A stretch of DNA of 64,000 bases from Escherichia phage TH12. Below are positions 27,238-44,497 of this stretch, piece after piece. The stretch is from sequence record MT446390.1; one strand, 5' to 3'. The translations under genes and the position numbers were made by a program. Under the pieces are notes generated by a model. It was not told the DNA's origin, searched no databases, and was given only the letters and a program-made list of their open reading frames with translations. Each line of letters begins with the position of its first letter. Position 1 is the first letter of the stretch.

Positions 27238-27711
27238 ATGTTATTATCTGGCAAATTATACAAAGAAGAAAAACAAAAATTTTATGATGCACAGAACGGT
27301 AAGTGTCCTATTTGCCACCGTGAATTAGACCCTGATGTTCAAGGTAACCATCTTGACCACGACCACGAGTTAAACGGGCCAAAAGCCGGTAGAGTTCGTG
27401 GATTACTCTGTAATCTGTGCAACGCAGCAGAAGGCCAAATGAAGCATAAGTTCAACCGTTCTGGTCTTAAAGGTCAAAACGTTGATTACCTCGAATGGCT
27501 TGAAGCTCTTCTTGCTTATTTGAAACAAGATTATTCTGATAATAATATCCATCCTAATTTTGTTCCAGACAAAACTAAAGAGTTCTCAAGACTAGGTAAA
27601 GAGGAAATGATGGCTGAGATGCTTCAAAGAGGATTTGAATATACTGAATCTGATACTAAAACACAATTAATAGCTTCATTCAAAAAGCAGCTTAGAAAGA
27701 GTTTAAAATGA
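27238..27711 (+). CDS. 49: endonuclease VII (Holliday-junction resolvase)
   Basis: MLLSGKLYKEEKQKFYDAQNGKCPIC ... near-identical to T4 gp49. Confidence 0.95.
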   Translation: MLLSGKLYKEEKQKFYDAQNGKCPICHRELDPDVQGNHLDHDHELNGPKAGRVRGLLCNLCNAAEGQMKHKFNRSGLKGQNVDYLEWLEALLAYLKQDYSDNNIHPNFVPDKTKEFSRLGKEEMMAEMLQRGFEYTESDTKTQLIASFKKQLRKSLK

Positions 27712-29525
27712 AAATTGAAAAAGAAATTGAAGGATTAATTTATAAAACTAATAAAGATCTTTTGAACGAGAATGCTAATAAAGATTCTCGTGTTTTTCCA
27801 ACTCAACGGGACCTTATGGCTGGTATTGTGTCTAAGCACATTGCCAAAAATATGGTCCCGTCTTTTATTATGAATGCGCATGAAAGCGGAATCATTCATA
27901 TGCATGATATTGATTATTCTCCTGCTCTTCCGTTTACTAATTGTTGTTTAGTCGATTTAAAGGGGATGCTTGAGAATGGATTTAAATTAGGCAATGCTCA
28001 AATTGAAACGCCTAAATCGATTGGTGTTGCTACTGCAATTATGGCACAAATTACTGCACAAGTTGCTTCCCATCAGTATGGCGGAACTACATTTGCGAAT
28101 GTCGATAAAGTTCTTTCTCCTTATGTTAAACGTACATACGCTAAACATGTTGAAGATGCAGAAAAATGGCAAATACCAGACATTCTGAATTATGCTCAAT
28201 CTAAAACAGAAAAAGACGTATACGATGCATTCCAAGCTTATGAATATGAGGTAAATACTCTTTTTAGTTCAAACGGTCAAACGCCTTTTGTAACAATTAC
28301 ATTTGGTACTGGAACTGATTGGACCGAACGAATGATTCAGAAAGCAATTCTGAAAAATCGGATTAAAGGTCTCGGTCGTGATGGAATAACTCCTATTTTT
28401 CCTAAACTTGTTATGTTTGTTGAAGAAGGTGTTAATCTTTATAAAGATGATCCGAACTATGATATTAAACAACTTGCGTTAGAATGTGCAAGCAAAAGAA
28501 TGTATCCTGACATTATTTCGGTTAAGAATAATAAAGCTATTACTGGTTCTTCAGTTCCAGTTTCTCCAATGGGTTGCCGTAGTTTCTTGAGTGTATGGAA
28601 AGATTCGACTGGTAATGAAATTCTTGATGGACGTAATAATCTCGGTGTTGTAACACTGAATCTTCCTCGCATCGCGTTAGATTCTTATATTGGAACACAG
28701 TTCAATGAACAGAAATTTGTTGAGCTATTTAATGAACGAATGGATCTGTGCTTTGAAGCCTTGATGTGTAGAATTAGTTCCTTAAAAGGAGTTAAAGCGA
28801 CTGTTGCTCCTATTCTTTACCAAGAAGGTGCATTCGGGGTTCGTCTTAAACCTGATGACGACATAATTGAGTTATTTAAAAACGGTAGAAGTTCAGTGTC
28901 TTTAGGATACATTGGTATTCACGAATTGAATATTCTTGTCGGACGTGATATTGGACAAGAAATTTTAACTAAAATGAATGCTCATCTTAAACAGTGGACC
29001 GAAAGAACTGGATTTGCTTTTAGCTTATATTCTACTCCTGCTGAAAACCTTTGTTATCGCTTCTGTAAACTTGATACAGAAAAATATGGAAGTGTAAAAG
29101 ATGTCACTGATAAAGGCTGGTACACTAACAGTTTCCATGTTTCAGTAGAAGAAAATATTACTCCGTTTGAAAAGATTTCTCGTGAAGCCCCATATCATTT
29201 CATTGCGACAGGCGGTCACATTTCTTATGTTGAACTTCCTGATATGAAAAATAACCTAAAAGGTCTTGAGGCTGTATGGGATTATGCTGCACAACATTTA
29301 GATTATTTTGGTGTTAATATGCCAGTAGATAAATGTTTTACATGTGGAAGTACTCATGAAATGACTCCTACTGAAAATGGATTTGTTTGTTCAGTTTGCG
29401 GAGAAACTGATCCTAAAAAGATGAACACTATAAGAAGGACCTGCGGTTATTTGGGAAATCCGAACGAGCGCGGATTTAATCTAGGCAAAAATAAAGAAAT
29501 CATGCATAGGGTTAAACACCAATGA
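27708..29525 (+). CDS. nrdD: anaerobic ribonucleotide reductase, uninterrupted
   Basis: 605 aa, C-terminal glycyl-radical motif RTCGYLG; matches T4 NrdD. Confidence 0.95.
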   Translation: MKIEKEIEGLIYKTNKDLLNENANKDSRVFPTQRDLMAGIVSKHIAKNMVPSFIMNAHESGIIHMHDIDYSPALPFTNCCLVDLKGMLENGFKLGNAQIETPKSIGVATAIMAQITAQVASHQYGGTTFANVDKVLSPYVKRTYAKHVEDAEKWQIPDILNYAQSKTEKDVYDAFQAYEYEVNTLFSSNGQTPFVTITFGTGTDWTERMIQKAILKNRIKGLGRDGITPIFPKLVMFVEEGVNLYKDDPNYDIKQLALECASKRMYPDIISVKNNKAITGSSVPVSPMGCRSFLSVWKDSTGNEILDGRNNLGVVTLNLPRIALDSYIGTQFNEQKFVELFNERMDLCFEALMCRISSLKGVKATVAPILYQEGAFGVRLKPDDDIIELFKNGRSSVSLGYIGIHELNILVGRDIGQEILTKMNAHLKQWTERTGFAFSLYSTPAENLCYRFCKLDTEKYGSVKDVTDKGWYTNSFHVSVEENITPFEKISREAPYHFIATGGHISYVELPDMKNNLKGLEAVWDYAAQHLDYFGVNMPVDKCFTCGSTHEMTPTENGFVCSVCGETDPKKMNTIRRTCGYLGNPNERGFNLGKNKEIMHRVKHQ

Positions 29526-29992
29526 ATTATGATAGATTTTATCCTTGCGATTTTGTGAATGGTCCTGGTTGTAGGGTCGTTCTTTTCGTTACGGGGTGTT
29601 TGCATAAATGCGAAGGGTGTTATAATAAATCAACATGGAATGCTAGAAATGGTATTCCATTCACTGGTGAAACACTAGAACAATTAATTGAATGTTTGAA
29701 TAATTATTATATAGAAGGATTAACTATAACCGGAGGAGACCCTCTCTATCCTGATAACCGAGATGTTATTCATTACATTGTTCAAACAGTAAAAAATCTT
29801 TATCCCAATAAAAGCATTTGGTTGTGGACAGGATATAAGTTTGAAGATATTAAACAGCTAGAAATGCTTAAATATGTTGATGTTATTATTGATGGGAAGT
29901 ATGAGAAAAATCTTCCGACCAAAAAGCTGTGGCGAGGATCAGATAATCAGCGACTTTGGTCAAATACCGATGGGGTGTGGAAACATGATTAA
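29522..29992 (+). CDS. nrdG: anaerobic RNR activating enzyme (radical SAM)
   Basis: CLHKCEGC CxxxCxxC motif; ATGA-coupled to nrdD. Confidence 0.9.
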   Translation: MNYDRFYPCDFVNGPGCRVVLFVTGCLHKCEGCYNKSTWNARNGIPFTGETLEQLIECLNNYYIEGLTITGGDPLYPDNRDVIHYIVQTVKNLYPNKSIWLWTGYKFEDIKQLEMLKYVDVIIDGKYEKNLPTKKLWRGSDNQRLWSNTDGVWKHD

Positions 29993-30103
29993 ATTGAATT
30001 ACATTATGGATACTATAAATGATATGATTTTTCATTTTGGTCCAGAATTTTATTCGCAATATGGTTTGCTTATCAATGCTTGGTTAATTAATTAAGGGTA
30101 AAT

Positions 30104-30319
30104 ATGTATAAATTTCGTAAAGGTTTAGCTGATTTTCTTACAACTGTAACGTTCTTTTTGTTTATGGCAGTTGGAGCTATTTTTCTTATTCCTTTTACTG
30201 GTGTATTTTTCGTGATTAGTTTAATTTCTCCAGAAAAGGGCTTATCTTCTAATGAGTTCAATGAGCGTCTGGATAAAATTACTAACAAACTGAATTCTGT
30301 TCTTGATAAAAAGGCTTAA
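30104..30319 (+). CDS. small membrane protein (71 aa)
   Basis: Hydrophobic helix. Confidence 0.5.
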   Translation: MYKFRKGLADFLTTVTFFLFMAVGAIFLIPFTGVFFVISLISPEKGLSSNEFNERLDKITNKLNSVLDKKA

Positions 30320-30321
30320 TT

Positions 30322-30639
30322 ATGATTAGTTTTGAGCGGTATGTAGTAGAGAGTTGGAATGGGTTTGATATGTTCGGTAATGACTATTATTTTTACGAAT
30401 GTAATCTAAATCCTAGTTTTTGGGCTGGACGTGAACGAGATCTCGAAGAAATTAATGCTCGCGCCGAATTGTTAGGTGAACTGCCTACAGTTTATTTTAC
30501 ATTTGATGAATCTGGATTTGTTATCCAGGTTTATTTTCCTGAAGAAAACTCTGGTGAGGATTCTGTTAATCCTCCTTATTGGGCTTATCAAGGAATTATT
30601 TCTCGTGGAACAAAACTCGAACTTAAAGAACAAGATTGA
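30322..30639 (+). CDS. hypothetical protein (105 aa)
   Basis: ORF. Confidence 0.5.
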   Translation: MISFERYVVESWNGFDMFGNDYYFYECNLNPSFWAGRERDLEEINARAELLGELPTVYFTFDESGFVIQVYFPEENSGEDSVNPPYWAYQGIISRGTKLELKEQD

Positions 30640-30928
30640 AATCTATGGCATCCCTGAAGAAGTTGGACGTTGTCCAGGATGTTATACTGTTACAAAACTT
30701 TTAAAGGAGCTCAATGCTCCTTATACATTTTATAAAGTCCTCACTAATAATGGTAAGATTGAATATGACCGTCCTTTAATCGTATCTCTTGCTAAACGTG
30801 CAGGATTCACTTCACTTAATATTCGTTATCCTGTCATATTTTTAAATGGTAAGAAACAAAAGAATATTGCAGAGTTTAAAAAGTCCTTGATTTCATTAGG
30901 ATACGACTCTGATATCATAGAAGATTGA
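30605..30928 (+). CDS. nrdH: glutaredoxin-like protein (NrdH-like; CPGC); start unresolved (GTG at 30605 or frameshift from upstream ORF)
   Basis: KIEIYGIPEEVGRCPGCY resembles NrdC N-terminus; no in-frame ATG near fold start. Confidence 0.45.
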   Translation: MEQNSNLKNKIEIYGIPEEVGRCPGCYTVTKLLKELNAPYTFYKVLTNNGKIEYDRPLIVSLAKRAGFTSLNIRYPVIFLNGKKQKNIAEFKKSLISLGYDSDIIED

Positions 30929-30951
30929 CCAGGTGCCGCCTGGTCTTCTTT
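30927..30951 (+). terminator. hairpin terminator GACCAGG-TGCCG-CCTGGTC + TTCTTT
   Basis: 7-bp stem then T-rich run. Confidence 0.5.
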
Positions 30952-31036
30952 ATCCCATTTCTAATATAATCTATTGGAACCCTCACTTCACTATCTCCTT
31001 GTGCCCCTCTCAAATCAAAAATATTTTCATAAAACA

Positions 31037-31065
31037 GTTTACATCCTCGATAGATATGTTAAGAT
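31037..31065 (+). promoter_or_regulatory. early promoter (GTTTAC, 17 nt, TAAGAT)
   Basis: Motif. Confidence 0.45.
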
Positions 31066-41785: not shown

Positions 41786-44497
41786 ATGAAAGAATTTTAC
41801 TTAACGGTTGAACAGATTGGTGATTCAATTTTTGAACGTTACATCGATTCTAATGGCCGTGAACGTACTCGTGAAGTAGAATATAAACCATCGTTGTTTG
41901 CACATTGTCCAGAAAGTCAGGCTACTAAATATTTCGATATCTACGGTAAACCTTGTACTCGTAAGTTGTTCGCTAATATGCGTGATGCCTCCCAATGGAT
42001 TAAACGCATGGAAGATATCGGACTTGAAGCACTTGGCATGGACGATTTCAAATTGGCGTATTTGTCTGACACTTATAACTATGAAATCAAATACGACCAT
42101 ACAAAAATTCGTGTGGCTAACTTCGACATCGAAGTAACATCTCCGGATGGGTTCCCTGAGCCGTCACAAGCAAAACATCCGATTGATGCTATCACCCATT
42201 ATGACTCAATTGACGACAGGTTCTACGTATTTGATCTATTGAATTCTCCGTATGGTAATGTAGAAGAATGGTCTATCGAAATTGCGGCTAAGCTTCAAGA
42301 ACAAGGCGGTGATGAAGTTCCATCTGAAATTATCGATAAAATCATTTATATGCCATTCGATAACGAAAAAGAATTGTTGATGGAATATCTCAACTTCTGG
42401 CAACAGAAAACTCCTGTCATTTTGACTGGATGGAACGTTGAGTCATTTGATATTCCATATGTGTATAACCGAATCAAGAATATTTTTGGCGAATCTACTG
42501 CGAAACGTTTATCACCACATCGTAAAACTCGTGTTAAAGTTATCGAAAACATGTATGGTTCTCGTGAAATCATTACATTGTTCGGTATCTCTGTTCTTGA
42601 TTACATTGACCTTTACAAAAAATTCTCTTTTACCAATCAACCGTCGTATTCTCTGGATTACATTTCAGAATTTGAATTGAACGTTGGTAAACTGAAATAT
42701 GACGGCCCTATTTCTAAGCTTCGTGAAAGCAATCACCAACGATATATAAGCTATAACATCATCGACGTGTATCGTGTATTGCAAATTGATGCTAAGCGCC
42801 AGTTCATCAACTTGAGTTTGGACATGGGTTATTATGCTAAGATACAGATTCAATCTGTGTTTAGCCCAATTAAAACATGGGATGCTATTATTTTTAATAG
42901 CCTTAAAGAGCAGAACAAGGTGATTCCACAAGGTCGTTCTCACCCGGTTCAACCTTATCCTGGCGCTTTTGTTAAGGAACCTATTCCAAATCGATACAAA
43001 TATGTAATGAGTTTCGACCTTACATCTCTGTATCCAAGTATTATTCGCCAAGTGAATATTAGCCCAGAAACAATAGCAGGAACGTTTAAAGTAGCTCCAT
43101 TGCATGATTATATTAACGCAATCGCTGAACGTCCTTCAGATGTGTACAGTTGCTCCCCTAACGGCATGATGTATTATAAAGACCGTGATGGTGTAGTTCC
43201 AACTGAAATCACTAAGGTCTTTAATCAACGTAAAGAACATAAAGGTTACATGCTTGCAGCTCAACGTAATGGTGAAATAATTAAAGAGGCATTGCATAAT
43301 CCTAATCTTTCTGTTGACGAACCATTAGATGTTGATTATCGTTTCGACTTCACTGATGAGATTAAAGAAAAGATTAAAAAGTTGTCTGCTAAATCTCTTA
43401 ATGAAATGTTGTTTAGAGCTCAACGTACTGAAGTTGCAGGTATGACTGCACAGATTAACCGTAAATTGCTCATCAACTCACTTTATGGTGCACTTGGCAA
43501 CGTTTGGTTCCGTTATTATGATTTGCGTAATGCTACTGCAATCACAACATTTGGTCAAATGGCTTTACAATGGATTGAACGTAAAGTTAATGAATATCTG
43601 AACGAAGTTTGTGGTACAGAAGGTGAAGCTTTCGTTCTTTATGGTGATACAGACTCTATTTACGTATCTGCAGATAAAATTATTGATAAGGTTGGTGAAT
43701 CTAAATTCCGTGATACCAACCATTGGGTAGACTTCTTAGATAAGTTCGCACGTGAACGTATGGAACCAGCTATTGATAAAGGTTTCCGTGAAATGTGTGA
43801 ATACATGAACAATAAACAACACTTAATGTTCATGGACCGAGAAGCTATCGCTGGTCCTCCGCTTGGTTCTAAAGGTATTGGCGGATTCTGGACTGGTAAG
43901 AAACGTTATGCATTAAACGTGTGGGATATGGAAGGAACCAGATACGCTGAGCCTAAACTCAAAATCATGGGTCTCGAAACACAGAAATCTTCGACCCCTA
44001 AAGCAGTACAGAAAGCTCTTAAAGAATGTATTCGCCGTATGCTTCAAGAAGGTGAAGAATCATTACAAGAATATTTTAAAGAGTTTGAAAAAGAATTCCG
44101 TCAATTGAATTATATTAGCATCGCGTCGGTATCTTCTGCGAATAACATTGCTAAATATGACGTTGGTGGATTCCCTGGTCCTAAATGTCCGTTCCATATT
44201 CGTGGAATTCTGACATATAACCGAGCTATCAAAGGTAATATTGATGCTCCACAAGTTGTAGAAGGCGAAAAGGTATACGTTCTGCCTTTACGTGATGGAA
44301 ACCCGTTCGGTGATAAATGTATCGCATGGCCTTCTGGTACTGAAATCACAGATTTAATTAAAGACGACGTACTTCATTGGATGGACTACACTGTTCTCCT
44401 TGAGAAGACATTTATTAAACCACTTGAAGGATTCACATCAGCAGCGAAACTCGATTACGAGAAGAAAGCATCTCTGTTCGATATGTTCGATTTTTGA
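41786..44497 (+). CDS. 43: DNA polymerase gp43 (family B), RB69-type
   Basis: 903 aa; exo motif FDIEV, pol motifs SLYPS and YGDTDS; matches recalled RB69 gp43. Confidence 0.98.
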   Translation: MKEFYLTVEQIGDSIFERYIDSNGRERTREVEYKPSLFAHCPESQATKYFDIYGKPCTRKLFANMRDASQWIKRMEDIGLEALGMDDFKLAYLSDTYNYEIKYDHTKIRVANFDIEVTSPDGFPEPSQAKHPIDAITHYDSIDDRFYVFDLLNSPYGNVEEWSIEIAAKLQEQGGDEVPSEIIDKIIYMPFDNEKELLMEYLNFWQQKTPVILTGWNVESFDIPYVYNRIKNIFGESTAKRLSPHRKTRVKVIENMYGSREIITLFGISVLDYIDLYKKFSFTNQPSYSLDYISEFELNVGKLKYDGPISKLRESNHQRYISYNIIDVYRVLQIDAKRQFINLSLDMGYYAKIQIQSVFSPIKTWDAIIFNSLKEQNKVIPQGRSHPVQPYPGAFVKEPIPNRYKYVMSFDLTSLYPSIIRQVNISPETIAGTFKVAPLHDYINAIAERPSDVYSCSPNGMMYYKDRDGVVPTEITKVFNQRKEHKGYMLAAQRNGEIIKEALHNPNLSVDEPLDVDYRFDFTDEIKEKIKKLSAKSLNEMLFRAQRTEVAGMTAQINRKLLINSLYGALGNVWFRYYDLRNATAITTFGQMALQWIERKVNEYLNEVCGTEGEAFVLYGDTDSIYVSADKIIDKVGESKFRDTNHWVDFLDKFARERMEPAIDKGFREMCEYMNNKQHLMFMDREAIAGPPLGSKGIGGFWTGKKRYALNVWDMEGTRYAEPKLKIMGLETQKSSTPKAVQKALKECIRRMLQEGEESLQEYFKEFEKEFRQLNYISIASVSSANNIAKYDVGGFPGPKCPFHIRGILTYNRAIKGNIDAPQVVEGEKVYVLPLRDGNPFGDKCIAWPSGTEITDLIKDDVLHWMDYTVLLEKTFIKPLEGFTSAAKLDYEKKASLFDMFDF

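Follow-up and report, generated by a model that had tools for sequence, protein, structure and literature searches.

The window analysed here is a stretch of 64,000 nucleotides from Escherichia phage TH12 (MT446390.1), an RB69-like (Mosigvirus) T4-type phage, and the genes considered below all lie on its + strand. The genes nrdD (27708-29525) and nrdG (29522-29992) are followed by a gene for a predicted membrane protein of 71 aa (30104-30319; phrog_1930, E=6e-35), whose homologue is named 55.8 in RB69 and T4. Next come a 105-aa ORF of the RB69ORF082c family (30322-30639) and nrdH (30605-30928, TGA stop at 30926-30928), which encodes a T4 gp55.7-type glutaredoxin of 107 aa with a CPGC motif. 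Directly after nrdH, a terminator scan detected an intrinsic-terminator-like hairpin with a T run (30927-30945), likely the end of an nrdD-nrdG-55.8-ORF-nrdH transcription unit. By comparison with the RB69 and T4 annotations, the nrdH gene of the window sits in the order nrdD-nrdG-55.8-(ORF)-nrdH-55.6, and RB69 is annotated with the very same series as the window, namely nrdD, nrdG, 55.8, RB69ORF082c, nrdH and 55.6. The locus is widespread: region 30050-31000 has matches in 659 phage records, the best at 98% identity and RB69 at 96.4%, and 418 phage records span at least 80% of it at an identity of at least 80%.

Two smaller features flank this gene series. The end of nrdG shares 8 nt with a 36-aa ORF (29985-30095), to which the records of ESh15, AV109, CT01 and PSD2001 assign a hypothetical protein, whereas those of RB69 and T4 leave it unannotated. 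On the other side, 165 nt separate the nrdH terminator from the next ORF (start ~31094), and a promoter-like site in this gap, at 31038-31065 (TTTACA, 16 nt, TG-TAAGAT), resembles a T4 early promoter (GTTTAC...).

The 105-aa ORF ends with the TGA at 30637-30639, and the nrdH frame is +1 relative to it. A sequence-only reading of this DNA had placed the beginning of the glutaredoxin fold about 3 nt before the stop of the upstream ORF, in another frame. The overlap of the two genes in different frames is indeed real and, as read from the sequence, comprises 35 nt (30605-30639), with an ORF tail of RGTKLELKEQD plus stop and an NrdH head of MEQNSNLKNKI. K-I-E-I-Y-G starts at 30632, 5 nt before the stop codon, with CPGC downstream. 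GTG 30605 lies in the glutaredoxin frame and gives a product that begins MEQNSNLKNKIEIYG. It had been regarded as the only canonical start, which turned out to be wrong: from 30476 onwards the frame is free of stops and offers six in-frame candidates (GTG 30476, TTG 30503, ATG 30506, TTG 30518, GTG 30554 and GTG 30605). Similarly, the supposed ATG at 30476 is a GTG, the in-frame ATG being 30506, and initiation at 30476 would add 43 residues instead of the 50 that had been stated. The same layout as in the window was found at all 17 of the 17 junctions that we read in genomes with the upstream ORF.

The NrdH protein of the window is an orthologue of T4 gp55.7. In tblastn searches its residues 8-107 are 85% identical to T4 NrdH, Mosigvirus records match at 96-99%, and nrdH homologues were found in 1352 phage records. 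In an alignment with T4 glutaredoxin 1AAZ, the CxxC motif after the first beta strand (IYGIPEEVGRCPGC, from 30641) falls on the CVYC region. NrdH is matched by PHROG 22 ('thioredoxin domain') with E=3e-15, while the Pfam Glutaredoxin model PF00462 gives 22.2 bits (E=1.6e-4) against a gathering threshold of 22.9. Among solved structures the closest is that of T4 glutaredoxin, the nrdC product (1ABA/1AAZ, E=0.03), and not that of E. coli NrdH. No bacterial NrdH-redoxin model was matched in an NCBIfam scan at E<=1, which returned TIGR02196 (YruB) alone, at 13.4 bits versus 88.55. The name nrdH is used here as the T4 gene name, and does not place the protein in the bacterial class Ib NrdH family. 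Glutaredoxin activity is predicted for the window protein by analogy, from the record notes of T4 and RB69, which read 'has glutaredoxin activity'. The first beta strand, KIEIYG, is preceded by a lead (MEQNSNLKN) that is short, variable and probably unstructured; across relatives, the lead before this strand ranges from 0 to 9 residues.

The 105-aa ORF belongs to phrog_2749, a family of unknown function, and neither the Pfam nor the NCBIfam scan gave a match for it. A profile run against 1.84 billion representative proteins gave 10 matches. Eight of them, 88-100 aa in length, are stand-alone proteins, and the other two (802 aa and 1503 aa) were judged spurious, being partial matches in which Pfam finds no significant stretches and which seem compositional. 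An AF2 model of the 105-aa protein reached a pLDDT of 77.6 and had no convincing structural neighbour. Its tail (residues 99-105) is predicted to be disordered, with pLDDT below 50; together with the variable lead of NrdH, this suggests that the dual-coding stretch encodes two unstructured protein ends. The ORF is present in some members, and absent from others, of both Mosigvirus and Tequatrovirus. Two distant members of its family likewise lie between a 55.8-like membrane protein gene and nrdH, and at these loci the ATG start of nrdH overlaps the upstream stop (ATGTTTAA in one case, ATGA in the other). In a separate comparison with Tequatrovirus teqhad, the 105-aa ORF showed 96% identity and the nrdH-only segment (30640-30925) 79%, from which it would follow that the ORF and the 5' end of nrdH have been exchanged between genera as a cassette; this sequence comparison indicates a putative recombination boundary near the nrdH start.

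The initiation signals of nrdH lie inside the upstream gene. GTG 30605-30607, which corresponds by homology to the T4 nrdH start, also a GTG, is preceded by the Shine-Dalgarno (SD) sequence AAGGA at 30590-30594, within the Y-Q-G codons of the 105-aa ORF, and both elements are thus enclosed by the same-strand ORF that ends at 30639. The anti-SD duplex of AAGGA has an energy of -5.4 kcal/mol. The spacer from AAGGA to the GTG measures 10 nt, which is long for such a spacer though still within what is usual, and this counts against the GTG as start. No SD was found before 30476, 30503, 30506, 30518 or 30554, where anti-SD energies were -1.0 kcal/mol or weaker. An AAGG core followed after 6-10 nt by GTG is found in T4, AV109, the Tequatrovirus relatives, Gaprivervirus, Dhakavirus and Kanagawavirus. 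Across genera, the codon of the upstream ORF that holds the GT of this GTG varies between cgt, tgt and agt (R, C or S), while the GTG itself is fixed.

The pattern of substitutions shows a switch of coding frame at 30605. Variable columns were counted by codon position in an alignment of 30322-30928 with nine close relatives from Mosigvirus and Tequatrovirus. From 30322 to 30604, 2, 5 and 38 variable columns fall on codon positions 1, 2 and 3 of the 105-aa ORF (chi-square p=3e-12), and from 30640 to 30925 the third, first and second positions of nrdH codons have 45, 16 and 6, respectively (p=1e-8). By this phasing the 105-aa ORF is a real gene and the nrdH frame is without coding constraint upstream of 30605, which rules out long extensions from 30476 or 30506. 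The overlap itself (30605-30639) is nearly invariant in the close relatives, and its sole change, AAC to AAT, leaves the NrdH protein unaltered and converts a Q codon of the upstream ORF into a stop.

A start at ATG 30506 or GTG 30476, with an N-terminal extension of 33-43 residues, would make use of a frame that is open in the window from 30476; ATG 30506 lies in it and has been chosen by some annotators, as in ESh15, a point to be counted against the GTG. Such an extension is nevertheless barely credible, as the stretch in question evolves in the frame of the 105-aa ORF and not in that of nrdH, 30476 and 30506 are without an SD, and stop codons just before the GTG close the frame in RZ, T4, AV109, IME523 and others. 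The extension is also hydrophobic, looks like off-frame sequence and has no homologue in T4 NrdH.

Further evidence for GTG 30605 comes from relatives in which there is no choice of start. The sequence-only reading had proposed a comparison with T4 nrdH, and the T4 gene (gp55.7, NP_049686) is likewise started from GTG in its annotation (aaggaatagttGTGaaacaaaataagattgaa; also taaggaatagttGTGaaacaaaataagattgaagtc), preceded by AAGGA, with a product that starts VKQNKIEVYG. Since T4 nrdH has no methionine codon and a TAA four codons upstream of the GTG closes its frame, this GTG is the only possible canonical start of the gene. T4 shares with the window the neighbours nrdG, 55.8 and 55.6 and a terminator-like GC hairpin after nrdH, but it lacks the 105-aa ORF, and its nrdH follows the 55.8 stop by 2 nt. 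The lead of T4 NrdH is five residues shorter (MKQN-KIEVYG versus MEQNSNLKN-KIEIYG in the window). A GTG as the single start candidate was also observed in AV109, a Mosigvirus without the 105-aa ORF, in the Gaprivervirus RZ, which has this ORF and an nrdH-frame stop two codons before the GTG, and in four metagenomic contigs. CIP9 and RB69 (AY303349) are already annotated with nrdH from the homologous GTG. A literature search for experimental data on the N-terminus of T4 NrdH returned nothing relevant, only general RNR papers.

RB69 (AY303349, NC_004928), which belongs to the same genus as TH12, has the same nrdH GTG and the same 35-nt overlap, although its upstream ORF is annotated from a later start, giving 89 aa versus 105 aa in the window. 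The RB69 record also has a gap of 2 nt in the 3' portion of nrdH, which shortens the protein to 90 aa and leaves it with an off-frame tail, whereas nrdH of all other relatives reads through to ...DSDIIED. The gap lies at ~2310-2331 of the RB69 locus, corresponding to ~30857-30862 of the window, and changes AAAAGAATATT into AAA--GATATT. In Shigella phage CT01 (OK018184, locus 512-775) we noted a deletion at a shared ttctgtt microhomology. It has removed the first ~80 codons of the ORF and fused 55.8 in frame to the last ~22 codons, and the AAGGA...GTG and an intact nrdH are retained. A pattern scan of IMG/VR for junction variants gave nothing beyond the five contigs that were already in the set.

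The sequence-only reading had also held that a clean ATG-initiated nrdH at the equivalent position in related genomes would speak against its view. Genes of this kind do exist, but in distant genera only, T4 and all close relatives having GTG. We found them in Jiaodavirus KP1 and YP11, Roskildevirus IT22, Gelderlandvirus Melville, Pseudotevenvirus Nando, Slopekvirus phT4A, Krischvirus Sf20 and Lazarusvirus Konradin. In these Straboviridae the ATG lies 1-4 codons before IE(I/V)YG, and the core IE(I/V)YG...CxxC is the same. Their nrdH often overlaps the upstream gene by 4-41 nt (either as ATGA or over 11-41 nt); most of these upstream genes bear no relation to the 105-aa ORF. Because many distant Straboviridae overlap unrelated upstream genes in this manner, an overlap at the nrdH start is the norm.

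We therefore favor, with a probability of roughly 90%, the interpretation that nrdH is an independent gene translated from GTG 30605 and served by the AAGGA at 30590-30594, with both signals embedded in the 3' end of the 105-aa gene. Of the three options that the sequence-only reading had left side by side, namely a GTG start with a short N-terminal extension, a programmed frameshift and a sequencing indel, only the first is supported by the data. Ribosomes would initiate de novo at the SD and GTG of nrdH, possibly helped by ribosomes arriving from the upstream gene, that is, by translational coupling. In the local MFE fold (-8.1 kcal/mol over 81 nt), GTG 30605 is placed in a weak stem, and this modelled structure is only suggestive of coupling. 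The layout is an ordinary one, as phages T4 and RB69 were already annotated with a GTG-started nrdH. T4-like phages routinely have short same-strand overlaps in which the upstream gene encloses the SD and start of the downstream one, and we see no new biology in this case.

In one genome the two genes are fused, a point to be counted against independent initiation of nrdH. Searching BFVD by fold with the 105-aa protein model led to PM2_077, a 199-aa 'glutaredoxin' of Pectobacterium phage PM2 (KF835987.1, 41901-42500), in which a homologue of the 105-aa protein (47% identity) and NrdH (60%) form one ORF, WSYQGIISSGKKYPKIEIYG, fused in frame. The junction lies at a run of seven A residues (caaggaattatttctaGTGgAAAAAAAtatcctaaaattgaa), in a tract at about 42205-42230 of the record. 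PM2 has the same caaggaattatttct-GTG motif as the window, with SD and GTG both retained, but its GTG is out of the nrdH frame. With eight A residues the usual layout is restored: the upstream ORF then ends SGKKIS plus stop, and nrdH reads GTG-EKKYPKIEIYG. No close relative of PM2 was found in the collection searched; its nearest relatives (MY742, CIP9 and IME523) have two overlapping genes with the start cGTGgaaaac. The fusion may be a homopolymer error, given that it is seen in a single record, or it may be a real 1-nt deletion and fusion. As the window has no such A run, PM2 is not evidence for frameshifting there.

The 105-aa protein and NrdH might be functional partners whose fused form is tolerated or used. 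The two genes are adjacent in every T4-like genus that has the 105-aa ORF and, in PM2, form a single polypeptide, and these two observations are the basis of such a partnership. A fused form could arise by mutation of the A run, by transcriptional slippage there, or by a rare +1 shift in the overlap. We consider this partnership improbable; were it true, phrog_2749 would belong to the phage anaerobic ribonucleotide-reduction or redox module.

A programmed +1 frameshift within 30605-30639 would fuse the 105-aa ORF to NrdH, with all or part of the NrdH being made as a fusion of ~200 aa. The two ORFs do overlap in a +1 relation, the 105-aa family lies directly upstream of nrdH in every genus examined, distant ones included, and the deposited PM2 sequence is such a fusion in the form of a single ORF. 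Even so, we regard frameshifting as most unlikely. In the upstream frame the overlap reads CGT GGA ACA AAA CTC GAA CTT AAA GAA CAA GAT TGA, and by reading 30605-30639 we found no slippery or hungry-codon site: no X XXY YYZ heptamer, no CUU-UGA or CUU-AGG and nothing resembling prfB or Ty1. The CTT-A is followed by the common codon AAA, GAT-TGA allows no re-pairing, and a -1 shift could not reach the nrdH frame. Moreover, the overlap varies between genera, being 35 nt, 29 nt (with an earlier TAA) or 20 nt (Gaprivervirus), and ends in TGA or TAA. An intact upstream ORF is missing from T4, AV109, YP11 and CT01, all of which encode nrdH, and the downstream ORF has its own conserved SD and GTG, or an ATG in distant relatives. 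The frame relation is the opposite one in KP1, whose upstream gene is unrelated and overlaps nrdH by ATGA. None of the 10 matches in the profile search of 1.84 billion representative proteins is a fusion of ~200 aa. The PM2 fusion itself is found in a single record (with GenBank and RefSeq copies), and one extra A at its junction gives the usual two genes.

Equally far from the preferred GTG start in our estimate, initiation could take place by termination-reinitiation at the non-canonical ATT 30635, where an ATTGA overlap lets the ATT share 1 nt with the TGA stop and the product would begin at I-E-I-Y-G. The start positions of distant homologues, 0-3 residues before IE(I/V)YG and in some cases in an ATGA overlap, agree with such a site. 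We hold it to be very doubtful, however. ATT is a very poor initiator, and at -0.9 kcal/mol this one is without an SD; in T4 and AV109 no upstream ORF ends at the ATTGA position, and the conserved SD and GTG would be left without explanation. We had considered ATTGA as a degenerate ATGA coupling signal as well. This was dropped, because the upstream ORF stops 6 nt earlier, at a TAA, in many close relatives, and T4 and AV109 have no ORF there.

A sequencing indel in the window that splits or shifts one of the ORFs can be given next to no weight: beyond the change of frame itself nothing in the window speaks for it, and the frame-breaking differences nearby in other records (the 2-nt gap of RB69 and the A7 run of PM2) may be errors or real mutations, whereas 16 other genomes, sequenced independently, have the junction in identical or almost identical form, which excludes such an error, hundreds of independent genome sequences show the layout again (~420 records carry the 105-aa ORF at a protein identity of at least 90% beside nrdH), and the longest homopolymer in 30590-30650 is at most 4.

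The main value of GTG 30605 as the nrdH start concerns annotation quality. In the records of close relatives, nrdH is annotated from the GTG (RB69, Mizar and CIP9), from an upstream ATG (ESh15, IME523 and MY742) or from an internal ATG (MN04), and these inconsistent starts can be corrected. The upstream-ATG annotations append off-frame sequence to the protein. As far as sequence comparison goes, the comparative evidence settles the predicted nrdH start on the T4-type GTG. In IME523 and MY742, the annotated ATG lies 6 codons upstream of the conserved GTG. Lastly, the Dhakavirus MN04 (locus 886-1203) has its nrdH annotated from an internal ATG (MRCPGC...), whereby the first beta strand is lost.
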